64,000 bases of DNA from an uncultured Planctomycetota bacterium. Lineage in GTDB: Bacteria; Planctomycetota; PLA2; JAEUHO01. The stretch is from positions 416,001-480,000 of the forward strand of contig CAVVXN010000005.1 of NCBI GenBank assembly GCA_963752285.1. Reading direction: 5' to 3'. Under the pieces are notes generated by a model. The model ran no database searches. It was given only the letters and a program-made list of their open reading frames with translations, and was not told where the DNA came from. Shown here piece after piece: positions 1 to 50,682 of this stretch. Position numbers and translations under genes: made by a program. Numbering within the stretch: the stretch's first letter is position 1; each line of letters starts with the position of its first letter.

Positions 1-974
1 CGGAAGAGGTCGGGCAGCCGCGTCCTGAGGACCACCCACTGCCGATAGGACTTGAGGTCCACCGCGGGCGTGCCGCCGTACATGCCGGGCTTCTGGATGC
101 CGCCCGCCGCGCCGGACTGCGCGACCAGGACCACGTCGTCCCCGATGCGACAGTGCCCCGGAACGCCGACCTGACCGGCCAGCACCGTGCGGTTCCCGAT
201 CTCGGTGCTGCCCGCGAGACCCGTCTGGCCGCAGAGCAACGTGTCCTCGCCGATGTGGCAGCCGTGGCCGACCTGCACCAGGTTGTCGATCTTCGTCCCG
301 CGACCGATGGTCGTGGCTCCGACGGTCGCGCGATCCACGCAGGCGTTGGCCTGGATCTCTACCGCGTCCCCGAGCTCGACGCCTCCGGTCTGGGGGATCT
401 TGTGCCACGAGCGGTCCTTCTCCGGCGCGAAGCCGAAGCCGTCCGCGCCGACGACCGCGCCGTTCTGGAGGATGACGCCCGCGCCGAGGCGCACGTGCTC
501 GCGCACGACCGCGAACGAATGCAGGACCGAGCCGGGACCGATCACCGCGCCCTCGTAGACGACGACGTGCGGGTGGATCACGACGCCGTCGCCCACGCGG
601 ACGCCGTCGCCGATCACGACGTAGGGTCCGATGCAGACGTCGTCGCCGAGAACGACGCCTTCGCCGAGTACCGCCGTCGCGTGGACGCCGTGGGTCACCT
701 CCGGTGGACGATGCAGGGTCTCGAGCAGGAGCGCGAACGAGAGGTAGGGGTTGTCCACGCGAAGCAGGGCGGGCGGGACCTCCTCGCTGAACGAGCGTTC
801 GACGAGCGCCGCGCCGGCCCGGGAGGTCCGGAGTGCAGCCGTGTACCTCGGGTTCGCGAGGAACGTGACGTCGGCGGGGCCGGCGTCGGCGATCGTGGCG
901 GCGCCGGAGATCTCGAAATCGACGTCGGGATCGACGTCCGCCTGCACCATCCGCGCCAGCTCCTGGATCCTCAT
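1..974 (-). CDS. lpxD: UDP-3-O-acyl-glucosamine N-acyltransferase LpxD (3' end truncated by window edge)
   Basis: Manual translation from ATG at 974: MRIQELARMVQADVDPDVDFEISGAATIADAGPADVTFLANPRY..., followed by hexapeptide repeats and GADGFGF, KIPQTG, DRATVG and TKIDNLVQVGHG motifs. Absent from the ORF track because there is no stop in the window. Confidence 0.95.
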   Translation of the reverse strand, partial: MRIQELARMVQADVDPDVDFEISGAATIADAGPADVTFLANPRYTAALRTSRAGAALVERSFSEEVPPALLRVDNPYLSFALLLETLHRPPEVTHGVHATAVLGEGVVLGDDVCIGPYVVIGDGVRVGDGVVIHPHVVVYEGAVIGPGSVLHSFAVVREHVRLGAGVILQNGAVVGADGFGFAPEKDRSWHKIPQTGGVELGDAVEIQANACVDRATVGATTIGRGTKIDNLVQVGHGCHIGEDTLLCGQTGLAGSTEIGNRTVLAGQVGVPGHCRIGDDVVLVAQSGAAGGIQKPGMYGGTPAVDLKSYRQWVVLRTRLPDLF

Positions 975-21257: not shown

Positions 21258-24200
21258 ATGTCGGAGCCCGAACGGGTCTCACTGGTCCTCTCGGAATGGC
21301 TGGCGCATCGGGACGAGATCACGCCCGAGGAGATGCTGGCCCGCCATCCGGCGATCGCGGAGGAGCTCCGGCGAAACTTCGTCTCCCTCGGCGTGCTCGA
21401 CGCCGCGCCGGCCGCGTCGCCCGCCGTGCCGCCCGGCGCCGGCGCGCCGGCGGGCGACGCGTCCGGCGAGGCTCCGGACGCGCACGCGACCGCCGCGCTG
21501 CCGCGCGGCGTGCTCCCGGGGCGCGGACCGCCGTCGGCGCGGAGGCCCGCGACGGAGGGCGCAGGGCCGACCGCGCCGTCCGGACCCGAGTCGCCGAGGC
21601 CCGATTCGCCCGAGCCCGAGCCGTCGAAACCGGCGCCGCCCGAGCCCGCGCCCCCCGCCCCGGAGCCGTCGAGGCCCACGCCGCCCCGGCTCGCTCGTCC
21701 GAAACCCAGGCCGCCGAAGCCCGAGCCGCCGAAGCCGATGCCCCCGGCGCCGCGACCCGTCCCGACGCCGCCGCCGCCGCAGTCGCCGCCGAAGGCGCCG
21801 CCATCGACACCGGCTCCGTCTGCGCCCGCGCCTCCGACCCGAGGGCCCACGTCTTCCCGCAGCGCGGCGCCGGCGCGCGCTCGCCCGTCCCCGCTCGCGC
21901 TGGTGGGGCGACATCCGCTCGTGGCCGTGGCCGTGCTCGTCCTCGCGGCGGCGGGGGCGGGCGCGTTCTGGTGGATGCGCCGTTCGTCCCGCGAAGCGGA
22001 CGCGGCGCGGCGCGCGCGCTACGAAGCCGCGATCGAGGCGGCCGAGCTCCCCCGCGCGAGCGGGCCCGACGCCTGGCCCGAGGCGGGTCTGCGGCCTCTC
22101 GAGACGCTCGCGGAGGCGAAGGTCGTCGATCCCGCCCGCCCCGAGGCCTTCCTGCTCGCGGCGCTGATCCCGGGACGCGACGCCACGGCGCGCCAGGAGG
22201 ACCTCGCGGCCGCCGTGAAGCGCGGCGCGGGACCCGCGACCGCGGCCGTCGTCGAGGCGGAGATCGGCGGACAGGACGCGCCCGGCGCCGTCTCCTCGGC
22301 GATCCCCGACGACGCGGCGGCCGCGGCCTGGGTCGAGGGCGTGGCCCTCGCCGGGCGTGGCGAGCTCGCCGACGCGACGGCGCGGCTCGACGCCGCCGTC
22401 GAGGCGGCGAAGGGCGCGGGGGTGGCGACGTTCGCTCGGCGCCTGCGGGCGTCGATCCGGCTGGGCTCGGGCGACCTCGACGGCGCCGCGGACGACCTCG
22501 CGTCGTTGACGGCCGCGGGGGCCGGGGCCGACGTCCAGGTCGCGTCCGCGTGGATCGACCACGAGCGCGGGAAGGACGACGCGGAGCGGCGCTTCGACGC
22601 GCTCCTCGCCGGCGCCAAGGCCGAGGGGTCCGCGGACGCGCTCCTGCGCCTCGCCGCGGCGTGCCGGCAGGCCGGAGCGCGCGCGTGGCACGCGAAGACC
22701 ACCGAGGCGGCGCTCGCGGCAGGCCGGCGCACCGCGGCGCTCCTCGTGGCGCGGGCCTCCGACGATCCCGGCGCCGCGGGGGACCTCGCCGACGAGGCGC
22801 TCCGCCTCGAGCCGAAGCTCCACGCCGCCCGGGAGCTCCGCGCGATGGCGAGCGGACGCGCGGGGCGCGTCGCCGACGAGATCGAGGCCCTCGAGGCCGG
22901 CCTCGGCGAGCGGCCCGACTGCCCCGCGTGCCTCGCGCGCCTCGCGTGGGCGCGGACGCGCGTCGGTCCCCTCGCCGAGGCCGAGCCGCCCGCGCGCCGT
23001 GCCCTCGAGCTCGACCCGGGCGCGGTCGATCCGGCCCTCGCGCTCGCCCGTTCGCTCCTCCTCCGCGGCGCGCCCGGCGAGGCGCGCGCGGTGCTCGAGG
23101 CGTGTGCCAAGCGTCGGCCGCACGACGCGCGGGTCGCCGCGGCCCAGGGCGACGCGCTCCGGGGCCTCGGCCGAACGCAGGAGGCGAGCGCGGCGTACGA
23201 GCGCGCGCTCGCGCTCGAGCCCCACCTCGCCGTCGCCGCGGCGGGCCTCGGCCGGCTGGCGGAGCGCGCCGGCGCTTGGGAGGACGCGGAGCGACGCTAC
23301 GCGGAGGCGATCGCCGCGGACCCCACGGACGCCGCGTGTCACGTCGCGCGCTGGCGCGTCCTCGTGCGCCTCGGCCGCACGGACGAGAGGAAGTCGGCGC
23401 TCGACGTGGCCGCGAGCGCGGCCGACCCGCGCGTGCGCGGGCACGCGCTCGAGGCCCTCGGGCGGCTCGACGACGCGAGCGCGGCGTACGCGGACGCCGA
23501 GAAGGCGCTCGGGCCCACGGCCGAGGTGCTCGAGGACCGCGCACGGGTCGCGACCTCGCTCGGGCGCGAGGACGACGCGCTGCCGCTCCTCGAGAGGGCG
23601 GCGCTCCTCGCGCCGGTGCGGGCGAGCGTCGAGGAGGAGATCGGTCGGGCTCACGCCGCGAAGGGCGAGGCCGCCCCCGCGCTCGCCGCGTTCGAGAAGG
23701 CGCTCTCGCTCGATCCCGACCGCGCGGCGGCGCACGCAGGCCGTGCACGGCTTCGCCTCGCGGCGGACGACCCGACCGGTGCGATGGCCGACGCGGAGGC
23801 GGCGGTCCGGCTGGCGCCCGACGACGCCGAGTTCCGGCTCGACCACGCGCGCGCGCTCGTGCAGACGGGAGACACGAAGGGGGCGGAGACGGAGGCGCGG
23901 GAGGCCGTGCGTCTCTCGCCCCGCCTCGTGGCCGGGCTCGTGCTCGTCTCCGACCTCGTGCGTCGGCGCGACGGGCCCCGGGAGGAGGCGCTGGACCTCC
24001 TCGACCGCGCGCTCCGCGCGGCGCCCGACGACTTCGGCGCCAATCGCCGGCGGGGCGAGGTGCTGTTCGAGGCGGGGCGGTTCGCCGACGCCACCCAGTC
24101 GCTCGACCGCGCGATCGCGTCGCAGGACGACGCGGCGGTCCGTGCGCTCCGCGGACGGGCGCTCTTCGAGCTGAAGCGGTTCGACCTGGTCGCGACCGAC

Positions 24201-39708: not shown

Positions 39709-39957
39709 ATGAACCCGCCCCGTTCGAACGTCGTCTCGCCGCTCCGCGCCGCCTCCCTCCCCCGGGGGGCCCGAGGCCTCGTCACCGCCGTGGACGGCTC
39801 CGTGGAGACGGTCGAGCGCCTCGCCGCGCTCGGCCTCGTCCCGGGCGCCGCCTTCCGCGTGCTCCGGGGCGGCTCGCCCCTGGCCCTCGCCGTCGGTGAG
39901 GCCCGGTTCGCCCTGGGCCGCGAGTGGGCCGAGGCCCTGGTGGTCTCCCCGCTGTGA
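39709..39957 (+). CDS. feoA: Ferrous iron transport protein A (copy 1)
   Basis: RLAALGLVPG..F.V...G.PL...VGE.RFALG...A. Confidence 0.85.
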   Translation: MNPPRSNVVSPLRAASLPRGARGLVTAVDGSVETVERLAALGLVPGAAFRVLRGGSPLALAVGEARFALGREWAEALVVSPL

Positions 39958-40211
39958 CGGCGCCGCCCGGCGGGGCGGGGCGGACGCTCGCGGACCTCCC
40001 CGTGGGCGGGCACGGGCGGATCCGGTCGATCGACGCGCCCGCGGCGCTCCGCCAACGCCTGCTCGAGATGGGTCTCGTCGAAGGCACGCCGGTCGAGGTG
40101 GTGCGGTTCGCGCCCCTCGGCGACCCGATGGAGATCCGCGTGCGCGGCTACCACCTGAGCCTCCGGCGCGCCGACGCGCGCGGCGTGACCGTCTCGGAGG
40201 ACGACGCGTGA
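39954..40211 (+). CDS. feoA: Ferrous iron transport protein A (copy 2)
   Basis: RLLEMGLVEGT.VEVVRFAPLGDPMEIRVRGY.LSLRR.DA; GTGA overlap. Confidence 0.92.
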   Translation: MTAPPGGAGRTLADLPVGGHGRIRSIDAPAALRQRLLEMGLVEGTPVEVVRFAPLGDPMEIRVRGYHLSLRRADARGVTVSEDDA

Positions 40212-42592
40212 GCCCGGCCTTCGCCCGCGAGCCCGTCGTCCTGCCCGTCGTCCGGGCCGAGCGGTGGGTGGCCCTGATCGGGAACCCGAACACGGGGAAG
40301 ACCACGCTCTTCAACGCGCTGACGGGTGGCCGCGCGCGCACGGGTAACTACCCCGGCGTCACCGTGGACAAGCGGATGGGCACGCTCCGCGGCGCGGACG
40401 GACACGTCGTGCGCGTGCTCGACCTGCCCGGCACGTACAGCCTCGCTGCGCGCTCGCCCGACGAGATGGTCGCGGTGGACGTGCTGCTCGGTCGTCTCGC
40501 CGACACGCCCCGCCCGGGCGCGGTGGCGGTCGTGGTCGATGCCGCGAACCTCGAGCGGAACCTCTACCTCGTGACGCAGGTGATCGAGACCGGCGTTCCG
40601 ACGATCGTCGCCCTCAACATGATGGACGACGCCGCGGCGCGAGGCATGCGGATCGAGCCCGCCGCGCTCTCGGAGCGCCTGGGCGTCCCGGTCGTGCCCA
40701 CCGTCGCCTCGCGCGGCCAGGGCGTGGACGCGCTTTGCGCGGCGCTCGTCGGAGCGCTCGACGCGCCCGCGCCCGCGTCCCGGCTCGACTGGCCCCCGGC
40801 GATCGAGTCCGCCGAACGGGCGCTCGCGCGGTCCATCGCGGATGCCGGGCTCGACGGCGTGACGTCGGTCGAGGTGCGCCGCGCGCTCCTCGACGCGGGC
40901 GGCGAGACCGAGCGTCGCCTCGTCGCCCGGGGTGGACCGCGCGTCGCGCAGTCGATCGCCGCCCACCGCGCGGCGGCCGAGGCCGAGGGCGGTTCGCTCG
41001 CGGCGCTCGAGGCCGCGACGCGCTACGCGTTCATCGCCGGCGTCGTGGAGGGGAGCCTCTCCCGCGAGGCGGCCCCCGCCGTCACCCGGTCGGACCGGAT
41101 CGACACGGTCCTGACGCACCGGATCTGGGGCACGCTCGCGCTCGCGGCCGTGATGACGACCGTCTTCACGTCGATCTTCTCGGGCGCGGCGCCGATCATG
41201 GACTGGATCGACACCGGCGTCTTCAAGCCGCTGCAGCAGGCCGTGGCCGGTTGGGCCTTCCTCGGCGACGGCGCGGTGAAGAGCCTCGTCGTGGACGGGG
41301 TCATCGGCGGGGTGGGGAGCGTCGCGGTGTTCCTCCCGCAGATCGCGATCCTCTTCGCGTTCATCGCGCTCCTGGAGGGCTGCGGCTACATGGCCCGGGC
41401 CGCGTTCCTGATGGACCGGCTGCTGCGCGGGTGCGGGCTCTCGGGGCGCTCGTTCATCCCGATGCTGTCCTCGTTCGCGTGCGCGGTCCCGGGAATCATG
41501 TCCGCGCGCACGATCGAGAACCGGCGGGACCGGATCGTCACCGTGCTCGTCGCGCCCCTCATGTCGTGCAGCGCGCGGATCCCCGTGTACGTGCTCATGA
41601 TCGCGGCGTTCGTGCCGCCGATCGCCCTGCTCGGCTTCGTGAACCTGCAGGGCGTGGTCTTCGCGGGGATGTACCTGGTCGGCATCCTGGTCGCGATCCC
41701 GGTCGCCCTCCTCCTCAAGCGCACCGTGCTCCGCGGCGACACGCCCTCGTTCCTCGTCGAGCTCCCGCCGTACCGCATCCCCCGGCCGGGCGTCGTGGTG
41801 GCGCGCGTCGTCGAGCAGGCGTGGGCCTTCCTCGCGCGCGCGGGGACGATCATCTTCGCGGCGAGCATCGTGATCTGGGCGCTGTCCTACTTCCCGCGCC
41901 CCGACGACCCCGAGGCGCCCGTCCGCGCCGCGGTCACGAAGGCCGAGGCCGGCGTGGCGCCGCGGCGCGAGCGTCTCCGGATCGAACGCGCGCGCCAGGA
42001 TCAGGCCGTGACCGCGGCCGAGGCCCAGGGGCCCGCGCTCGGTGTACCGGCGCGCCAGGCCTACACCGCCTTCCTCGCGTACGCGGACGACGAGGAGGCG
42101 AAGCTCCGCGGCGAGGTCGAGTCGGCGCGGGTGGAGGCCGAGCACGACGTCCAGGGCGAGGCGCTCCGCGAGAGCTTCCTCGGCCGGGCCGGCCGCGCGC
42201 TCGAGCCGGTCTTCGCGCCGATGCGGTGGGACTGGAAGGTCGCCGCGGCCGTCGTGGCGTCGTTCCCCGCGCGCGAGGTCGTCGTGAGCACGCTGGGGGT
42301 CATCTACAACCTGGGATCCGACGCGGACGAGGAGAGCGAGGGTCTTCGCGACCGCCTGCGCGCGGCGTCGTGGGACTCGGGACCGCATGCGGGGCAGGCC
42401 GTCTTCGACCTCCCGGGGGCCATCGCGCTCATGGTCTTCTTCGCGCTGTGCGCCCAGTGCGTCTCGACGCTGGTCACGATCCGGAAGGAGACCGGGGCCT
42501 GGCGGTGGGCCGCGTTCTCGTTCGGCTACATGACGATCCTCGCCTGGTGCGCGGCCGCGCTCGTCGCGGTCGGGCTGAGGGCCCTTCTCTGA
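40208..42592 (+). CDS. feoB: Ferrous iron transport protein B
   Basis: G motifs GNPNTGKT, NYPGVTV, DLPGTYSL and NMMD; membrane motifs GYMARAAF.MD, MSCSAR.P.Y, ELPPYR.P and AREVVV. Confidence 0.96.
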   Translation: MSPAFAREPVVLPVVRAERWVALIGNPNTGKTTLFNALTGGRARTGNYPGVTVDKRMGTLRGADGHVVRVLDLPGTYSLAARSPDEMVAVDVLLGRLADTPRPGAVAVVVDAANLERNLYLVTQVIETGVPTIVALNMMDDAAARGMRIEPAALSERLGVPVVPTVASRGQGVDALCAALVGALDAPAPASRLDWPPAIESAERALARSIADAGLDGVTSVEVRRALLDAGGETERRLVARGGPRVAQSIAAHRAAAEAEGGSLAALEAATRYAFIAGVVEGSLSREAAPAVTRSDRIDTVLTHRIWGTLALAAVMTTVFTSIFSGAAPIMDWIDTGVFKPLQQAVAGWAFLGDGAVKSLVVDGVIGGVGSVAVFLPQIAILFAFIALLEGCGYMARAAFLMDRLLRGCGLSGRSFIPMLSSFACAVPGIMSARTIENRRDRIVTVLVAPLMSCSARIPVYVLMIAAFVPPIALLGFVNLQGVVFAGMYLVGILVAIPVALLLKRTVLRGDTPSFLVELPPYRIPRPGVVVARVVEQAWAFLARAGTIIFAASIVIWALSYFPRPDDPEAPVRAAVTKAEAGVAPRRERLRIERARQDQAVTAAEAQGPALGVPARQAYTAFLAYADDEEAKLRGEVESARVEAEHDVQGEALRESFLGRAGRALEPVFAPMRWDWKVAAAVVASFPAREVVVSTLGVIYNLGSDADEESEGLRDRLRAASWDSGPHAGQAVFDLPGAIALMVFFALCAQCVSTLVTIRKETGAWRWAAFSFGYMTILAWCAAALVAVGLRALL

Positions 42593-42899: not shown

Positions 42900-44201
42900 A
42901 TGCGCGCTCTGTCCCGGCCCCGTTCGCTCGCCCTCGTGCTCGCCCTCGCCGGACTCGCGGCGGGGTGCGGGGGAAAGGAAGAGTCGCAGTCGGGCAAGGC
43001 GGCCGCGGCCCCGCCGGGGACCTCTCCCTACGCCGCGTCCCCGTACGCGGAGATCCACGGCGCGGCGTCCTCGGGCCTCGCCCAAGACCTCGTGAAGAAG
43101 GCCGAGACCGCGGTCGGGAAGGGTCGGGAGGCGCTGCTGAAGGCGCAGGATCCATCGGGCGCGTTCGGCGATCCGACGCTCAAGATGCCGCCGAACGTGG
43201 GGTACACCGCCATGGCGGTGGAGGCCGTCATCGCGGCGACCCCGCAGCGCGAGGTGGCCAAGGACGAACACGTCGGCAAGGCGCTCGCGTACCTCGCCAA
43301 GCAGCAGAAGGACGACGGGTCGATCTACGACAACGACCAGTACGTCAACTACATGACCTGCGCGTCGATCGGCGCGTTCTCGATGGCGAAGGTCGCCCAG
43401 TACGCCCAGAACGAGCTGAAGGCCCGCGACTTCGTCGTGAAGAGCCAGATCGGCGGTGACGAGAAGGACATGTCCTACGGCGGGTTCCCGTACGGGGAGG
43501 AGCCCGACGAGCTGCCGGACCTCTCGAACGCGCAGTTCGCGGCGCAGGCGTTCCACGACGCCGAGCTCCCCGCCGACGCCGAGGCGTGGGCGCGGCTCCG
43601 CGTGTACCTCGACCGCGTGCAGAACCGCTCCGAGTCGAACAAGACCGAGGTCGAGGCCAAGGTGGACGACGCGAAGGGCGTGGTGGTCGCGGGCGACGAC
43701 GGCGGGGCGTACTACCGTCCGGGGATGAGCCAGGCCGGGCTCGTGAAGCGCGCCGACGGCACATACGAGCCGCGTTCGTACGGCTCGATGACGTACGCGC
43801 TCGTGAAGTGCTACCTGCTCGCGGGCGTGAACGCGAAGGACCCCAAGGTCCAGGCGGCGATCGGCTGGATCCAGGACCACTTCACGCTCGACCGGAACCC
43901 GGGCTTCGAGAGCGCGAAGGACCCCGAGAAGGCCGGTCAGCAGGGCTGGTACTACTACGTCTTCACGATGGCGCGCGCGCTCACGGCGTACGAGCTGGTG
44001 ACGGGCAAGCCCCTGGAGATCAAGGACGACCAGGGCCAGACCCACAACTGGAGGGCCGAGCTCGTCCAGGCGCTCCTCGACCGCCAGAAGGACGACGGCA
44101 CGTGGGTGAACCCGACGGATCGCTGGGAGGAGAGCTCCCCGACCCTCGCCACGTCCTACGCGCTCGTCTCGCTCGCGGAAGCGCTCGGCCGGTTGCACTA
44201 G
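42900..44201 (+). CDS. Lipoprotein with prenyltransferase/squalene-cyclase (QW) repeats
   Basis: LAAG-C lipobox; repeated L...Q..DG motifs; DLSN.QF, DGG..Y.P, RSYGSMTY and Q..DG.W.N...W.E. Confidence 0.85.
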   Translation: MRALSRPRSLALVLALAGLAAGCGGKEESQSGKAAAAPPGTSPYAASPYAEIHGAASSGLAQDLVKKAETAVGKGREALLKAQDPSGAFGDPTLKMPPNVGYTAMAVEAVIAATPQREVAKDEHVGKALAYLAKQQKDDGSIYDNDQYVNYMTCASIGAFSMAKVAQYAQNELKARDFVVKSQIGGDEKDMSYGGFPYGEEPDELPDLSNAQFAAQAFHDAELPADAEAWARLRVYLDRVQNRSESNKTEVEAKVDDAKGVVVAGDDGGAYYRPGMSQAGLVKRADGTYEPRSYGSMTYALVKCYLLAGVNAKDPKVQAAIGWIQDHFTLDRNPGFESAKDPEKAGQQGWYYYVFTMARALTAYELVTGKPLEIKDDQGQTHNWRAELVQALLDRQKDDGTWVNPTDRWEESSPTLATSYALVSLAEALGRLH

Positions 44202-44221: not shown

Positions 44222-44929
44222 GTGGCGGACCGTCCCGCCCCGCCCGATCCGGGGCCTTCCTGGCGGGCGGCGGCGGCCCTCGGTCCGCCCGCGCTCCCGG
44301 TCCTCGCGTTCGTCGCCGTGCGGCTCGCGGGCGGCGCGGGCGCGGCCGGCACGTACCGCGCGATGGCCTTCGCGCTCGTGGCGTCGGCCGCGGTGGGGGC
44401 GTTTTGCGCGCGGTCCGCGGCCGTCTCGTCGCTCCGCGCGGTCGTGGTGGCCGCCACGCTCGGCGGAGCCGCGGCCGTCTCGACGACCGAGGTCGCGCGG
44501 GGCCTCGCCGCCGCCTTCCTCGGGGGGAGCGTCGTCCTGTCCGCCTCGGGCCTCTCGGCGCTCGGACGCCGCGTCGGCGCGCCGGGCGTCGCCGCGGGCG
44601 CCGTCGCGGCGTCGGTGCTCTGGGTGGCGATGCTGGGGCTCTACTGGGCCGACCCTCTCTCGGAGCACGTGCCCCTGGCTCTCCGCCGTGGCGTGCGGCA
44701 GGCCGTCCTCTACGTCGATCCGGTGCTCGCCGCGTCGTACGGCGCGGCGGGTCACGACCGTCTGCACGACCCCGACGTCTACTTCGAGGTCCCCCTCGCC
44801 TCGTCGCTCATCCAGGCGCCGGACGCCCGGACGACGGGCCTGACCTGGACCGCCGTGGGCCTCCTCTCGTGGGCCGCGGCGCTCGTGGGACGGCGGCGCG
44901 GTCCGGGGACCGCCCGGCCGGCGCCGTAG
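44222..44929 (+). CDS. Hypothetical multi-pass membrane protein
   Basis: Several Ala/Val/Leu-rich helices in the C-terminal part of track ORF 43586..44929; GTG start at 44222. Confidence 0.65.
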   Translation: MADRPAPPDPGPSWRAAAALGPPALPVLAFVAVRLAGGAGAAGTYRAMAFALVASAAVGAFCARSAAVSSLRAVVVAATLGGAAAVSTTEVARGLAAAFLGGSVVLSASGLSALGRRVGAPGVAAGAVAASVLWVAMLGLYWADPLSEHVPLALRRGVRQAVLYVDPVLAASYGAAGHDRLHDPDVYFEVPLASSLIQAPDARTTGLTWTAVGLLSWAAALVGRRRGPGTARPAP

Positions 44930-44939
44930 CATCGACCCC

Positions 44940-46406
44940 GTGCGCACCGTTCCGGGCTCTCTCGCGGACGCCGAGGTCGTCGTGGTCGGCGCGGGCGGCC
45001 TCGGGTGTCCCGCCGCGTGGGCGCTCGCGGCCGCCGGCGTCGGGCGCGTGACGATCGTAGACCCCGATCGCGTCGAGCCCTCGAACCTCCCGCGCCAGGT
45101 CCTGTTCGGCCCGGACGACGTGGGCCGGCCGAAGGCGCTCGCCGCCGCGCGGCGCCTCGACCCGGACGGCGCGCGCGTGCACGGCGTGGCCGAGCGCCTC
45201 GACGACACGAACGAGATGCGCGTGCTCGCGGGCGCCTCGGTCGTGATCGACGCCACCGACGGCGCGCCCGCGAAGGACTGGCTGAACGCCGTCGCGGTCC
45301 GTCGGGGCCTGCCGCTCGTGCACGCGGCAGCGCTCCGGTCGGAGGGCCGGGTCCTCGAGGTGCCTCCGGGCGGTCGGCCCTGCCTCGCCTGCCTCTTCGG
45401 TCGGCTTCGGGAGGAGGGCGGGGCGTGCGCGGACCTCGGCGTCTGGCCCGGCGTCGTCGGCGCGACGGGCTACCTGGCGGCGGCCGCCGCCGTGCGGCGC
45501 GTGCGGGCGCCCGACGCGCCGTCCCCCGGCTACCTCCTGCTCGACCGCGGCGGCGGTCGCACCGTCGTCCTGACGGCCGCGCCCGACTCCTCGTGTCTGG
45601 TGTGCGCGCGCGGCGAGGCGCCGCCGGAGCCGTACCCGTCCGTCCCCGCCTGCGCCGTGGACCCCCTGGCCGGTACGGCGCCGCTCGACGGAGAGGCGCG
45701 GCTCGACCTTCGCGACGAGTCGTGCCCGTTGAACCTGCTCCGCGCGCGCCGCGCGGTGGAGGACCTGGCGCCCGGCCGCGTCGTCCGGATCGTCCTCGGC
45801 GCCGAGGGCCGGGAGAGCGTGCCGGAGGGCCTGCGTGCGCTCGGGCACCGGCTCGTGGACGTCGAGGCCCGCGCCGACGGACTCGAGCTCGTGGTCGCGC
45901 GCGGTCGGACCGACGCCGGGCCCGGACCCGGCACACGCCTCTCGCGCGACCAGCTCCTCCGCTACGCGCGGCAGGTCGTGCTCCCGGAGGTGGGGGAGGC
46001 CGGGCAGCGCCGCCTGCTCGACGCCGCGGTGGGGCTCTCCGGCTCGGGCCCTCTGCTCGAGGCGGCCGCGGTCCACCTCGCCGCGTCGGGCGTCGGGCGA
46101 CTCGTGATCGATGGGGAGGGCGCGCCGCCGCGGAACGGGTTCCCGTACGGTCGCGGACGGACGGCCGCGGAGGCGCTCGCCGCGTTCCTCTCGCCGCGGT
46201 CCGACGGCCGGGTCGAGGCGGGTCCGCTCCGAGGCGACCTCCTCGTCGTGCGCGCGGACGACGCGGTTCCCGGGACGGAGGGGCTCGACCTCCTCGCGCC
46301 CGGCGCGGGCGCCGACCGGGACGCGCGGCTTCGCGCCCGAGGGGCGCTCCTCGCAGACGGCGCGATGCGCGCCGTCGTCGGCGCGGCGTACGCTGGACGT
46401 CCGTGA
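44940..46406 (+). CDS. ThiF/MoeB adenylyltransferase - TusA sulfur carrier - degenerate ThiF fusion
   Basis: GAGGLG, DPDRVEPSNLPRQ, DATD and CLAC...CLVC; then LDLRDESCPLN (TusA); then RYARQVVLPEVGEAGQRRL (MoeB N-terminus). Confidence 0.85.
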   Translation: MRTVPGSLADAEVVVVGAGGLGCPAAWALAAAGVGRVTIVDPDRVEPSNLPRQVLFGPDDVGRPKALAAARRLDPDGARVHGVAERLDDTNEMRVLAGASVVIDATDGAPAKDWLNAVAVRRGLPLVHAAALRSEGRVLEVPPGGRPCLACLFGRLREEGGACADLGVWPGVVGATGYLAAAAAVRRVRAPDAPSPGYLLLDRGGGRTVVLTAAPDSSCLVCARGEAPPEPYPSVPACAVDPLAGTAPLDGEARLDLRDESCPLNLLRARRAVEDLAPGRVVRIVLGAEGRESVPEGLRALGHRLVDVEARADGLELVVARGRTDAGPGPGTRLSRDQLLRYARQVVLPEVGEAGQRRLLDAAVGLSGSGPLLEAAAVHLAASGVGRLVIDGEGAPPRNGFPYGRGRTAAEALAAFLSPRSDGRVEAGPLRGDLLVVRADDAVPGTEGLDLLAPGAGADRDARLRARGALLADGAMRAVVGAAYAGRP

Positions 46407-47326
46407 GGTCGCTCGCCCCGGTCTACCGCACGCTCGCCGCCATGCACCGCGCGGGGATCCCGTGGCCGCGCGCGGTCCAGAGCGCGACGCTCGACGACGC
46501 GCGCTTCGTGACCGTGCGGCGGGACCTCGAGACCGGCCGGACGCTGTCGGAGGCGCTCGGGGGGATCGTAGACCCGCTCGACCGGGCGCTGATCGAGGCG
46601 GGCGAGAAGGACGGGTCGCTCGATACGACGCTCGACCGCCTCGCCGAGCGACACGAGGACGCGCGCCGGAGGGGCCGCGAGCTCCGCGCGCGACAGGCGT
46701 ACCCCGTGTACCTTGCGCACGTCGCGGCGGTCTTGATGGCGCTGCCCGACGTCATCCAGTCGCACACGCTCGCCGCGGTCGGCTGGGCCGCACTCGTGCT
46801 CGTTCCCGTCTGGACCTGGCTGCTGCTCCAGCGTCGGTTCCTCGGCGCCGAGCGGCGGCCCGCGACGTCGGGCGACCCGCCCGCACCGCCGCCGCTCGTC
46901 GGTCCCCTCCGGTCGCGGGTGGAGGAGGCCGACGCCCGGGCCCTCGAGGCGCTCGGGCGGCTGTACGAAGCGGGCGTCCCCCTCGCCGAGGCGACGCCTC
47001 TCGCGCTCCGGGCCGGGTGGGGCGGGCGCGCCGCGCTCGACCTGGCGACGCTTCGCGACCGGGTCCGGCGTGGCGACGACGTCGCGGGGGCCTTCCGGCA
47101 CCTCCCGCCGGATCTCGCGGGCCGGATCGCCGCCGCCGAGGAGTCGGGCTCGCTCGGCGAGGCGCTGGTCCAGATCGCGGGGGAGCTCGCCTTCGACGCG
47201 GAGGTGCGCCGCAAGAAGCTCCATCAGCTCCTGCCCCTCGTCCTGATGCTCCTCGTCGGAGGGATCATCGCGGCCCGGCTGTTCACCTTCTACGCGCAGT
47301 ACTACAGCCAGCTCTCGGGCCTCTGA
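46403..47326 (+). CDS. Type II secretion system F / PilC family protein
   Basis: Two repeats: L..M.RAGIP...GE..GSL...L.RLA...YP and AG.PL...AEESGSL...L..IA; GTGA overlap. Confidence 0.85.
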   Translation: MRSLAPVYRTLAAMHRAGIPWPRAVQSATLDDARFVTVRRDLETGRTLSEALGGIVDPLDRALIEAGEKDGSLDTTLDRLAERHEDARRRGRELRARQAYPVYLAHVAAVLMALPDVIQSHTLAAVGWAALVLVPVWTWLLLQRRFLGAERRPATSGDPPAPPPLVGPLRSRVEEADARALEALGRLYEAGVPLAEATPLALRAGWGGRAALDLATLRDRVRRGDDVAGAFRHLPPDLAGRIAAAEESGSLGEALVQIAGELAFDAEVRRKKLHQLLPLVLMLLVGGIIAARLFTFYAQYYSQLSGL

Positions 47327-47434: not shown

Positions 47435-48601
47435 ATGGAGCAGGAACAGATCATCCAGTGTCCGACCTGCGGGAAGAAGTACCGGTTGAAGGGAGCCCCG
47501 CCTCCGACCTTCACGTGCCGCGGCTGCCAGACCGTGATGGACCTCTCCGGGTTCCAGGCCGCGGCGGCGCCCGCGCCCGGCCCCGTCGAGACCGCGCGAC
47601 GCGGCGCCTCGCCGCCGCGTGGGGGCGGCGGGGGCGCGCCGAGCTCGCGTCACCGGCCCGGTCATCGCGCGGGCGCGTCGTCCCGGCGTAGCCGTCGAGG
47701 CGAGCCCGCGGCGGACGCGGGCGAGGACGAGGGTCGGCCCCGGTACTCCGGTCGCGAGAAGAAGCCGAACACGGCGCTCCTGATCGGTTCGGTCGCGGGC
47801 GTCGTCGTCGCGGGCCTCGCGCTGTTCCTCTTCATGACCGGCGGGGACAAGCCGGACGCGAAGAAGGATGCAGCGAAGAACGTGGCGCCGGTGAGCGCCA
47901 CGCCTCCGGAGACGACGAACACAGGGCCCGAGACGCCGACCACGGGGCCGGCTACGACGGACGCCACGGAGTCGCCGGACAAGCCGAACGATCCGCCGAA
48001 GGAGAAGCCGAAGCCGAAGGACGTCGAGGAGGCGCGGCCCGAGCTCTCGGAAGGCGACTACGCGAGCATCCCGATCCCCGAGGGGAAGACGAAGTACGGG
48101 TGGAACGCGGCGCGCATCCAGACGTACCCCTGGCCCTCGTACGTGACCGGCGAGGAGAAGAACCAGATCGACCAGTGGGTCCACACGCTCGTCTGGGGGA
48201 GCGGCCGGGACGCGGACGAGGCGGGGGACGCGCTCGTGAAGCTCGACGCGTTCCCGAAGAAGGGCGAGGAGTTCAAGGCCGTGGGACGGTTGATCACGGA
48301 GTTCAAGAACGTGCTCGGCCAGGGCAGCGCCAGCGACCCGATGACCCTGGCGCGTCTCCGGGTGATCGACCGCACGCTCCGCCGGATCGACGGCGCGATG
48401 GAGCGTGAGTTCAAGGACATCGACGGCATCAACATCAACTCCTCCGACCGTGACGCCGAACGTCTGATCAAGCGCTGGAACTGGTGGTACGACCTCGAGA
48501 AGTGGCGCCTTCGCCGGCAGCCCTACGATCCGCGAGAGGACATGACGGACTCTCCCGACAGCGGCGGCGACGACGGGGGCCTCGCGCCGCTCGACCATTG
48601 A
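47435..48601 (+). CDS. Zinc-ribbon single-pass membrane protein
   Basis: N-terminal CPTC...CRGC, low-complexity linker, TM helix, Pro/Thr/Lys linker and a helical C-domain ending W..WW. Confidence 0.8.
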   Translation: MEQEQIIQCPTCGKKYRLKGAPPPTFTCRGCQTVMDLSGFQAAAAPAPGPVETARRGASPPRGGGGGAPSSRHRPGHRAGASSRRSRRGEPAADAGEDEGRPRYSGREKKPNTALLIGSVAGVVVAGLALFLFMTGGDKPDAKKDAAKNVAPVSATPPETTNTGPETPTTGPATTDATESPDKPNDPPKEKPKPKDVEEARPELSEGDYASIPIPEGKTKYGWNAARIQTYPWPSYVTGEEKNQIDQWVHTLVWGSGRDADEAGDALVKLDAFPKKGEEFKAVGRLITEFKNVLGQGSASDPMTLARLRVIDRTLRRIDGAMEREFKDIDGININSSDRDAERLIKRWNWWYDLEKWRLRRQPYDPREDMTDSPDSGGDDGGLAPLDH

Positions 48602-50682
48602 CCCCGACGGAGCCGGGCACGCCGGGGCCGAAGCTCGAGTCGGCGCCGTTTCGGCTGACGACGGCGTTCCGCCTGTCGGACGACCAGTCGCACGCGGTGG
48701 ACGCGCTCGTGCGCGGACTCGCCGCGGAGAAACGGCACCAGGTGCTCCTCGGCGTCACCGGCTCGGGCAAGACGTTCACGATGGCGAACGTGATGGCGCG
48801 CGTCGCCCGCCCCACGCTGGTGCTCGCGCCCAACAAGACGCTCGCCGCGCAGCTCTTCGACGAGTTCCGCGAGCTCTTCCCCGAGAACGCCGTCGAGTAC
48901 TTCGTCTCCTTCTACGACTACTACCAGCCGGAGGCGTACCTCCCCTCGTCCGACCTCTACATCGAGAAGGACGCGAGCATCAACGACCGCATCGACCGGA
49001 TGCGGCACTCCGCGACGCGCGCGGCGCTGACGAGACGGGACGTCGTGGTGGTGGCGAGCGTCTCGTGCATCTACGGCCTCGGCTCCCCCGAGGAGTACCG
49101 TGACTTCCACGTCGAGCTCGAGGAAGGACAGTCGATCGACCGCGACCTCGTGCTCCGGCGCCTCGCGCGGATCCAGTACCACCGCGACGACTTCCAGCTC
49201 GGGCGGGGCGCGTTCCGGGTCCGGGGCGACGTGGTCGAGATCGGGCCGGCCGACCAGGACGACCGGGTCGTGCGCGTCGAGTGGTTCGGCGACGAGATCG
49301 AGCGCATCGAGGAGGTGGACACCCTGACCGGCGAGATCCTCGGGCGTCGTGCGAAGGCCGCCTTCTTCCCGTCCACGCACTACGTGCAGAGCGACGAGGC
49401 CCTCTCCCGCGCCATCGACGGCATCGAGGCCGAGCTCGACGAGCGCGTCGCCGCGTTCAAGGCGAAGGGCCGTCTCCTCGAGGCGGACCGGATCCTGAGA
49501 CGCACCCGGTACGACCTGGAGCTGCTCCGCGAGACGGGCTTCTGCCCCGGCATCGAGAACTACTCGCGCCACCTCGACGGCCGGCGGCCCGGGGAGCCGC
49601 CCGCGACGCTGCTCGACTACTTCCCCGAGGACTTCCTGCTCTTCGTGGACGAGAGCCACGTCGCGATCCCGCAGGTGGGGGGCATGTACTTCGGGGACCG
49701 GCGCCGGAAGGAGAACCTCGTCGAGTACGGCTTCCGGCTGCCCTGCGCCCTGGACAACCGGCCTCTGACCTTCGAGGAGTTCGAGGCGCGGGTGGGTCCG
49801 TCCGTCTACGTGTCGGCGACGCCGGGCGCGTTCGAGCGGGAGGCGGCCGGCGACGCGGTCGTCGAGCAGGTCATCCGCCCCACGGGCCTGGTCGATCCCG
49901 AGGTCGTCCTCCGACCGGCGCGGGGGCAGGTCGAGGACGTGCTCGGCGAGATCCGGGCGCGCGTCGCCGTGGGCGAACGGGTCCTCGTGGCGACCCTGAC
50001 GAAGCGGATGGCCGAGGAGCTGACCGAGCACCTCGGCGAGGTGGGCGTGCGGGCCCGGTACATGCACTCCGACATCACCACCCTCGAGCGCGCCGAGATC
50101 CTCCGGGACCTCCGGCTCGGAGTGTTCGACGTGCTGGTCGGCATCAACCTCCTCCGCGAGGGGCTCGACCTCCCGGAGGTCTCGCTGGTGGCGGTGCTCG
50201 ACGCCGACAAGGAGGGGTTCCTGCGTTCCGAGACCTCGCTGATCCAGGTGTCCGGCCGCGCGGCGCGAAACCTCAGGGGCACGGTGATCCTGTACGCCGA
50301 CCGCGAGACGGAGGCGATCCGTCGGGCGACCTCCGAGATGTCCCGCCGGCGCGAGATCCAGAGGCGGTTCAACGAGGAGCACGGGATCGAGCCGAGGACC
50401 GTGGTCCGCGCGGTCCGGGACACGGTGGGCCAGGTCTACGCCGACCGCGACTACGTGGACGTGAGCGCGCTCGCCGCCGAGCGCGAGGCGCTGCCGAAGA
50501 GCCGTCGCGGCCTCCTCGATCGGCGGACGCAGCTCGAGAAGGAGATGCGCGAGGCGGCGCAGGCGCTCCGCTTCGAGGACGCGGCGCGCCTCCGCGACGA
50601 GATGCGCCGCGTGGAGGCCCTCCTGCTCCGCGGCGCCGAGGCGGTCGAGGAGGAGGCGCCCGCAGAAGAACCCGCCCCGTAG
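48598..50682 (+). CDS. uvrB: Excinuclease ABC subunit B
   Basis: LLGVTGSGKTFTMA, NKTLAAQL, FVSFYDYYQPEAY, DESH, GINLLREGLDLPEV, GRAARN and a C-terminal UVR coil; TTG start overlaps the upstream stop. Confidence 0.97.
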   Translation: MTPTEPGTPGPKLESAPFRLTTAFRLSDDQSHAVDALVRGLAAEKRHQVLLGVTGSGKTFTMANVMARVARPTLVLAPNKTLAAQLFDEFRELFPENAVEYFVSFYDYYQPEAYLPSSDLYIEKDASINDRIDRMRHSATRAALTRRDVVVVASVSCIYGLGSPEEYRDFHVELEEGQSIDRDLVLRRLARIQYHRDDFQLGRGAFRVRGDVVEIGPADQDDRVVRVEWFGDEIERIEEVDTLTGEILGRRAKAAFFPSTHYVQSDEALSRAIDGIEAELDERVAAFKAKGRLLEADRILRRTRYDLELLRETGFCPGIENYSRHLDGRRPGEPPATLLDYFPEDFLLFVDESHVAIPQVGGMYFGDRRRKENLVEYGFRLPCALDNRPLTFEEFEARVGPSVYVSATPGAFEREAAGDAVVEQVIRPTGLVDPEVVLRPARGQVEDVLGEIRARVAVGERVLVATLTKRMAEELTEHLGEVGVRARYMHSDITTLERAEILRDLRLGVFDVLVGINLLREGLDLPEVSLVAVLDADKEGFLRSETSLIQVSGRAARNLRGTVILYADRETEAIRRATSEMSRRREIQRRFNEEHGIEPRTVVRAVRDTVGQVYADRDYVDVSALAAEREALPKSRRGLLDRRTQLEKEMREAAQALRFEDAARLRDEMRRVEALLLRGAEAVEEEAPAEEPAP

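Follow-up and report, generated by a model that had tools for sequence, protein, structure and literature searches.

Can an adenylating enzyme of the ThiF superfamily that lacks its customary N-terminal arginine-bearing segment be provided with one from further along the same chain? The question is raised by an open reading frame (ORF) at 44940..46406 (+ strand; GTG start, TGA stop at 46404-46406) of the window analysed here, a stretch of 64,000 nucleotides (nt) of an uncultured Planctomycetota bacterium (contig CAVVXN010000005.1, positions 416,001 to 480,000). The 488 amino acid (aa) product has a ThiF domain lacking its N-terminus, then a TusA domain and then a second, degenerate ThiF domain. 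Judging from structural modelling and the content of related genomes, it is probably a single-chain, intramolecular pseudo-dimeric counterpart of the ubiquitin-activating (E1) enzymes, acting on the sulfur carriers MoaD and ThiS and on a third carrier that is SAMP1/CysO-like.

The order ThiF-TusA-degenerate ThiF had been read from the letters alone in an earlier annotation (hereafter the original prediction), and it is borne out by Pfam matches and by a residue check of every motif named there; the three parts account for the whole 488-residue model. The active adenylation domain (residues 1-235; 44940..45644, +), delimited by its Pfam match, a fold match to ThiF 1zud and invariant residues, gives 177.2 bits with the Pfam ThiF profile PF00899 (cut-off 28.1), whose positions 18-219 (out of 238) correspond to residues 8-203. 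Beginning at profile position 18, it is without the RYxRQ helices that precede beta1, and otherwise has what is needed: G17/G19/G20/G22 of GxGGxG, R52 of SNLPRQ, K65, D104/D107 of DATD, a zinc tetracysteine formed by two CxxC pairs (C148, C151, C219 and C222) and an additional cysteine, C163. A linker (residues 236-252; 45645..45695, +) that holds the only stretch of the model with a predicted local distance difference test score (pLDDT) below 50 (residues 239-246) leads to the TusA domain (residues 253-320; 45696..45899, +), where PF01206 matches residues 254-319 with 43 bits against a gathering cut-off of 28.6. Its Cys-Pro pair, C262-P263, is invariant, and the codon for Cys262, the invariant TusA cysteine within LDLRDESCPLN, is at 45723-45725 (+). 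The missing RYxRQ segment is found instead towards the C-terminus, at residues 336-364, within what we term the C-module (residues 330-488; 45927..46403, +). This shortened and degenerate ThiF domain retains RYARQ..PEVGE.GQ (R341/R344/Q345 being those of RYARQ), beta1-helix-beta2 and a late helix (GALLAD), and is devoid of GxGxxG, SNLxRQ, DxxD and the zinc cysteines. When the C-terminal third is scanned alone, ThiF profile positions 1-49 match approximately residues 341-390 with 23 bits, under the 28.1 cut-off. Arg344 (codon 45969..45971, +), invariant and aligned with MoeB Arg14, is the proposed arginine finger. The Pfam scan of the 488-aa protein gave no match to rhodanese (PF00581), no catalytic-cysteine or ubiquitin-fold domain and no further domain above its gathering cut-off.

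Might a start codon further upstream, or a frameshift, restore RYxRQ to the first domain? The original prediction had itself raised an upstream start, and the possibility is out: ahead of the ORF the open frame extends by no more than 32 codons, with neither an ATG, GTG or TTG nor an RYxRQ among them. The preceding gene, in another frame, stops at a TAG (44927-44929) 10 nt 5' of the ORF start.

The architecture is that of a family. Among the 120 best homologues listed, 85 have ThiF plus TusA; they are 314-566 aa long, all come from Planctomycetota or unnamed organisms, and their source names are only 'ThiF family adenylyltransferase' or similar. With about 85 protein clusters of those 120 homologues sharing the architecture, chance fusion is ruled out. 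In an alignment of 29 family members none has an N-terminal RYxRQ and every one has both the TusA Cys-Pro and a C-terminal R[FY]ARQ..LPEVGE.GQ. An 81-sequence alignment has D41, R52, Q53, K65, D104, D107, C148, C151, C163, C219 and C222 invariant in domain 1, and C262, P263, R344, G355 and G384 likewise in 81 of 81; the nucleotide-binding glycines G17/G19/G20/G22, invariant in the smaller alignment, are at least 90% conserved in the larger. On domain 1, with its catalytic motifs present and its RYxRQ absent, the original prediction is right residue by residue, and the alignments of relatives agree. Certain short matches that might have passed for split genes inside the fused family (P0121-P0126, P0140, P0146, P0151 and P0189) are read as fragments or miscalled starts, because they begin inside or just before the TusA domain and are mostly on short contigs.

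Comparison with solved structures by phmmer divides the chain in the same way: residues 8-229 align to ThiF 26-250, and residues 336-364 align separately to ThiF 5-31 and MoeB 4-33, placing R344 on MoeB Arg14. The relevance of that arginine can be seen from Uba4, whose MoeB-like ATP site is described, in the sections of PMC7527816 consulted, as drawing Gly, Arg, Lys and Asp from one subunit and an N-terminal Arg from the other.

What, then, is the remainder of the C-module? When the family profiles of residues 330-488 and 1-235 are compared with hhalign, beta1-helix-beta2 and the late helix come into register (E 1.8e-4, probability 48%). Folded alone, the C-module gives a pLDDT of 76.5 and a predicted template-modelling score (pTM) of 0.72, and in a fold search against 48,161 representative chains its best 21 matches are all to the E1 superfamily: they include Uba4 (Z 12.5), MoeB (Z 11.6), UBA1 residues 52..423 (Z 11.3), APPBP1 (Z 11.0) and SAE1 (Z 10.6), the last two of which are the inactive halves of the E1s for NEDD8 and SUMO. 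Profile and predicted fold thus support reading the C-terminal part as a ThiF domain in degenerate form, as the original prediction did. A degenerate domain could be non-catalytic, serving in regulation or docking or simply decaying, with domain 1 having no arginine finger at all. That the C-module is under the Pfam gathering cut-off and variable over most of its length would suit such a role; but in 30 of 30 fused and free C-modules RYxRQ has an invariant R and Q, G..GQ and one Gly being invariant too, and the module is also kept as a gene of its own, its frame abutting or overlapping the stop of a NIL-domain gene in loci of the sister family (with a 23-nt gap in L061). We regard a non-catalytic C-module as very improbable.

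How are the two ThiF-type domains placed with respect to each other? An AlphaFold2 model of the whole chain, made with the 81-sequence alignment, is compact, with pLDDT 91.1 and pTM 0.92. Its domain 1 matches ThiF/MoeB with Z 27.6-29.4 and 33% identity over 213-221 aligned residues (ThiF 1zud: Z 29.4, 217 residues). Foldseek with the whole model matched domain 1 well and found single-chain E1s only at a root-mean-square deviation of ~17 Å, too loose a fit to be informative; these latter matches were re-aligned with VIA-align. UBA7 (9jtc_A) then superposes on 335 residues at 3.0 Å over model 7..487, and UBA1 and UBA6 entries on 332-352 residues at 3.2-3.9 Å, the single-chain E1 superpositions spanning model 3..488, where such ranges give the first and last aligned residues only. 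Some 115 residues more fit in this one superposition, which is most simply explained if domain 1 and the C-module are placed like the two adenylation domains of an E1, that is to say in MoeB dimer geometry within one chain, and R344 would then contact the ATP site of domain 1. The intramolecular pseudo-dimer that the original prediction envisaged is supported by the model, through its pTM and the superposing of both halves on UBA7, UBA1 and UBA6; R344, aligned with MoeB Arg14, is invariant.

A different history would put the arginine in trans. Were the protein a circular permutation that acts as a homodimer, its C-terminal RYARQ helices would pack on the chain they belong to and R344 would reach the ATP site of a second chain, as in MoeB, leaving what remains of the C-module as the relic of a linker. 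'RRLLDAAV', at the end of the C-module's helix pair, and 'SLADAEVVVVG', at the beginning of domain 1, do align to one and the same ThiF segment, as after duplication and deletion, and the middle of the C-module is poorly conserved. However, the C-module has the full beta1-helix-beta2 and late helix and folds alone as an E1-type domain; the whole-chain model fits both halves to single-chain E1s at once, and the C-module is a separate conserved protein in the sister family and beyond. We think a permuted homodimer quite unlikely.

Which carriers would a pseudo-dimer of this kind serve? The genome from which the window comes (G000; 4.64 Mb, 5 contigs, 89% complete) has a single ThiF-family gene, the ORF under consideration, and a single TusA domain, the one inside its product. 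It has three ThiS-family genes and all are outside the 64-kb window, so that the original prediction was correct in recognizing no ThiS/MoaD gene nearby. It was too pessimistic in calling the target unknown: the ORF is the sole ThiF-family gene, and MoaD, ThiS (fused to ThiG) and a third carrier are encoded elsewhere in the genome. The first carrier is a 79-aa MoaD with a GG end, whose gene is followed by that for MoaE. The second is a ThiS-ThiG fusion in one 385-aa frame (L004:703-1860 (-); G000:C5 ~1433833-1434030), at whose junction ..VAFVGGG is followed by DPAFEDEPL..ThiG. The third, 86 aa and GG-ended (L005:1498-1758 (-); G000:C3 ~22343-22561), has SAMP1 and archaeal MoaD as its best NCBIfam matches, both under cut-off; its gene is directly downstream of that for a 419-aa BNR/sortilin-like protein (L005:1781-3040 (-)). 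MoaC and several class-V aminotransferases of the cysteine-desulfurase type are also encoded.

The window's own family of relatives, f1, tells much the same. No canonical full-length ThiF was found in any of 19 f1 genomes, 14 of which have the N-truncated type and three of which (G005, G011 and G014) gave no ThiF match, while MoaE is present in 17 of 18 f1 relatives, as well as in G000, and ThiS-family genes are in 31 of the 31 genomes searched. With no canonical ThiF in f1 despite the presence of MoaE and ThiS, the fused enzyme is the sole visible candidate for activating MoaD and ThiS; being the sole ThiF-family protein in G000, it most likely serves MoaD for molybdopterin, ThiS for thiazole and the third, SAMP1/CysO-like carrier. 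In one f1 genome, G007 (90% complete), the only ThiF signal is two weak pieces at C7:34397-34962 (-), one with an in-frame TGA, which may reflect either damage to the copy or a fault of assembly.

A mechanism can be sketched. Domain 1 would bind ATP-Mg and adenylate the C-terminal Gly-Gly of a ThiS/MoaD-type carrier, with the C-module packing on it as a MoeB dimer partner does and giving Arg344 to the ATP site in cis. Cys262 of the TusA domain would receive a persulfide from a cysteine desulfurase and pass its sulfur to the acyl-adenylate, yielding the carrier thiocarboxylate, a task that falls to the rhodanese domain in MoeZ, MOCS3 and Uba4. C163 may have an assisting part, like its counterpart in ThiF. 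The flow of sulfur through Cys262 and the identity of the substrates, like the order of evolutionary events to be considered below, are what we infer from the parts and their company.

Did the parts have an independent existence? In a sister family of the same order, f2, they still do. All 11 f2 genomes have a canonical ThiF enzyme, which in the one scanned (L035, G019) consists of a rhodanese domain and then ThiF profile positions 1-237. Besides it, 10 of the 11 have an N-truncated ThiF, and this is at the locus equivalent to that of the window, after a toroid lipoprotein and a membrane protein, with a T2SSF gene beyond. Truncated ThiF, NIL gene and free C-module are in that order at 8 of 9 f2 loci examined, the ninth (G023) having an unrelated gene in place of the latter two. 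The NIL-domain protein has 79 aa (PF09383, 1e-12), and the free C-module is a separate frame of ~125-165 aa beginning ..TP..VRRYARQILLP... Its frame abuts or overlaps the NIL stop in 7 of the 8 loci, the exception being the gap in L061 mentioned above. Reading by eye, a GTG or TTG start is available for it in 4 of the 8 and only CTG in the other 4 (L034, L062, L064 and L065). At these CTG-only loci the CTG overlaps the NIL stop, as CTGA, ahead of the conserved RYxRQ, an overlap that suggests coupled re-initiation at a rare start codon.

Compared with the truncated ThiF of f2, window domain 1 is 47% identical across 142 residues; compared with the canonical f2 enzyme, 37% across 230. At the N-terminus of the ThiF domain of that canonical enzyme, 67 residues align with the window C-module at 49% identity. 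A quick tree by maximum likelihood (51 rows), rooted only at midpoint, has a branch with the 20 fused N-domains plus a long-branch extra row from G001 (support 95; the 20 alone, 42), another with the truncated f2 type (98) and a third with the canonical enzymes and diverse MoeB-like rows (82). Were the root within the canonical group, the fused and truncated types would fall on one side of this last branch. The original prediction had linked separate genes in relatives with a chance fusion. Relatives do split the parts, but chance fusion is not implied: adjacent, conserved and at the same locus, the genes point to a functional unit that was later fused.

The surroundings of the ORF are in part shared by both families. 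Upstream are a lipoprotein with weak alpha/alpha-toroid (prenyltransferase/squalene-cyclase-like) matches (42900..44201, +) and a 235-aa membrane protein without a Pfam family (44222..44929, +), whose gene is the one that ends 10 nt 5' of the ORF. The first is syntenic in f1 and f2, being detected in 21 of 28 related loci and in 9 of 9 f2 loci, and the second is syntenic in relatives (24 of the 28). Further upstream, the FeoA and FeoB genes for ferrous iron transport (39924-42592) are syntenic in 8 related loci. Downstream is a gene for a T2SSF-domain protein (46403..47326, +) with a GTG start that overlaps the TGA stop of the ORF (GTGA); this co-directional overlap is confined to the window, L006 and L009, the T2SSF gene being on the opposite strand in other loci. 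A zinc-ribbon protein (47435-48601) and UvrB (48484-50682) follow, and in most relatives these two, with T2SSF, are downstream of the E1 gene.

Free C-modules are far from being a planctomycete speciality. Searched against 1.84 billion representative proteins, a C-module profile has 12,747 matches at E ≤ 0.001 and 3,437 at E ≤ 1e-10, though many of the weaker ones will be the N-termini of ordinary ThiF proteins. Taking the best 150, the match begins within the first 15 residues in 117, and 110 of these are no longer than 240 aa; 16 of the 150 are of the fused type, and the source names are mostly 'hypothetical protein'. Two proteins without TusA have the reverse order, a degenerate ThiF with RYSRQ and then an active ThiF from profile position 20 or 9. 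They are P0210 (396 aa, Myxococcota) and P0215 (448 aa), and their domain order is that of eukaryotic E1s.

For a non-planctomycete subgroup there are 80 metagenome loci, of which the 20 with a near-whole-protein match were examined. A NIL gene is directly upstream (gap ≤35 nt) in 15 of the 20, and in 3 of the 5 loci without one the DNA does not reach far enough upstream. A carrier with 42-45% identity to the 86-aa carrier of G000 is upstream in 9, and a ThiF gene in 5, every one of them cut at the locus edge. Locus L073 is especially full: ThiF, a pyridoxal phosphate (PLP) enzyme, a ThiS-family carrier, a second PLP enzyme, NIL and the C-module are followed by a sulfate symporter and ATP sulfurylase, which, as gene content goes, is a sulfur-assimilation setting of the CysO/CysM type. 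By the same kind of evidence, free C-modules constitute a large unnamed family, usually beside NIL genes in CysO/CysM-like sulfur operons.

Against an enzyme for all three carriers several points have to be set. NCBIfam ranks ThiF/MoeB models first for the 488-aa protein and scores all of them under their curated cut-offs (TIGR02356, 181.1 against 275.25; NF006444, 180.2 against 449; TIGR02355, 142 against 376.55), so that by sequence it is a member of the ThiF superfamily outside the MoeB/ThiF equivalogs. G000 is 89% complete and a second ThiF gene could be missing, and two f1 genomes have other ThiF-like pieces (a divergent one in G001, 102 bits; a partial one at a contig end in G012). The Gly-Gly end of ThiS is not free in ThiS-ThiG unless the fusion is cleaved or ThiG is started internally. 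No carrier gene was found near the locus among the GG-ended frames of L006-L031, save in L028, which is not a member. Nothing known connects the conserved lipoprotein and membrane protein with sulfur transfer. Lastly, the orthologous unit in f2 coexists with a canonical MoeB, which makes it probable that the ancestral job was something other than MoaD/ThiS activation; a CysO-like carrier is the probable substrate of the split, NIL-containing ancestor.

Some of these points would be met if the enzyme were dedicated to one pathway, be it that of the SAMP1/CysO-like carrier or a process tied to the lipoprotein and membrane protein, with MoaD and ThiS activated by other means. Coexistence of the same locus with a canonical rhodanese-MoeB in f2, lipoprotein and membrane-protein synteny across both families, and the free C-modules elsewhere in operons with that 42-45% identical carrier and two PLP enzymes can all be cited for it. 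Yet neither a second ThiF gene in G000 nor a canonical one in 19 f1 genomes was found, despite MoaD-MoaE, and we know of no MoeB-independent route to thiocarboxylated MoaD. A dedicated E1 seems to us unlikely, if less so than the permuted homodimer, and the preferred reading continues to be a single-chain E1 for MoaD, ThiS and the third carrier.

On that reading the 488-aa protein would be the fused form of a three-gene unit, comprising a truncated ThiF, a small middle protein and an arginine-finger subunit, that is still separate in sister lineages. In f1 TusA would have taken the place of the middle NIL protein, and no canonical rhodanese-MoeB is found; fusion, the NIL-to-TusA exchange and the failure to find the canonical enzyme together fit a takeover of MoaD/ThiS activation. 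A broader proposition is that bacterial MoeB-type E1s have repeatedly become asymmetric, with a catalytic ThiF that has shed its arginine helices depending on an arginine-finger subunit from a large unnamed family, and that the planctomycete series runs from three genes to one fused gene by way of NIL-to-TusA replacement and takeover from rhodanese-MoeB. This is a possibility that we take seriously while putting it at somewhat under an even chance.

Why should one care? Asymmetric E1s, with one active and one inactive half, are treated as a hallmark of eukaryotic ubiquitin-type systems, with MoeB and ThiF as their textbook symmetric ancestors. Within one bacterial order there is here a symmetric enzyme, a version divided among three genes and an asymmetric version fused into one, making the origin of E1 asymmetry testable. 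For a planctomycete family in which no MoeB is recognizable, the results point to the enzyme that probably makes the sulfur carriers for molybdopterin and thiazole. They propose TusA as a built-in rhodanese replacement, and they flag small unnamed proteins in their thousands, along with the NIL-domain proteins beside them, as likely subunits of E1s. Should the broader proposition hold, eukaryotic E1s, with their passage from heterodimer to single chain, would have a parallel in prokaryotic sulfur transfer, and NIL-domain proteins would gain a role in E1 chemistry.

To what extent has nature's tinkering here been noticed before? No description of a ThiF-TusA fusion, of a free degenerate ThiF subunit or of a NIL-E1 link was recognised in the full-text literature, most subscription journals and supplements being outside that search. 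The nearest antecedent is with Iyer, Burroughs and Aravind (2006), the consulted portions of whose paper (PMC1779556) describe operons with a rhodanese-less E1-like protein, a separate SirA/TusA and a ThiS/MoaD carrier, and propose SirA/TusA as the stand-in for rhodanese beside the E1-like enzyme. In the operons so described the proteins are separate and the carrier is in the operon, whereas the E1 of the window has TusA as an internal domain and no carrier gene close by.

Relative to the Escherichia coli homodimers MoeB and ThiF (1jw9, 1zud), the fold of domain 1, the nucleotide motifs, the zinc tetracysteine and the crossover-loop Cys are the same; what differs is that the arginine helices are in a degenerate second ThiF of the same chain, with TusA inserted between the domains. 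MoeZ/MoeZR, MOCS3 and Uba4 have in common with the window protein an adenylation domain fused to a persulfide-carrying domain (a predicted function in our case), that domain being TusA here and rhodanese in theirs. As PMC7527816 has it in the sections consulted, Uba4-type enzymes are homodimers with an N-terminal Arg, in contrast to the predicted one-chain pseudo-dimer. That one E1 may suffice for several carriers has a precedent in MoeZR, which according to the part of PMC3227635 consulted serves both MoaD and CysO.

The antiphage E1 BilD (8tyz) offers a more distant likeness: the C-module model matches BilD residues 8..178 only weakly (Z 8.6), and BilD, whose pathway is ubiquitin-like conjugation with an E2, has neither TusA nor the zinc tetracysteine. 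BilD does have an inactive N-terminal adenylation domain. It is with the eukaryotic E1s (UBA1, UBA6 and UBA7; NAE1-UBA3; SAE1-SAE2) that the modelled architecture invites the fullest comparison. Those have one active and one degenerate domain of ThiF fold, as the window protein is predicted to have, and both groups have heteromeric and single-chain forms, here those of f2 and f1. The window protein has no FCCH/SCCH catalytic-cysteine domain and no ubiquitin-fold domain, and its zinc tetracysteine and TusA domain argue for sulfur transfer rather than the charging of an E2. With the active domain ahead of the inactive one, its order is the reverse of that in UBA1.

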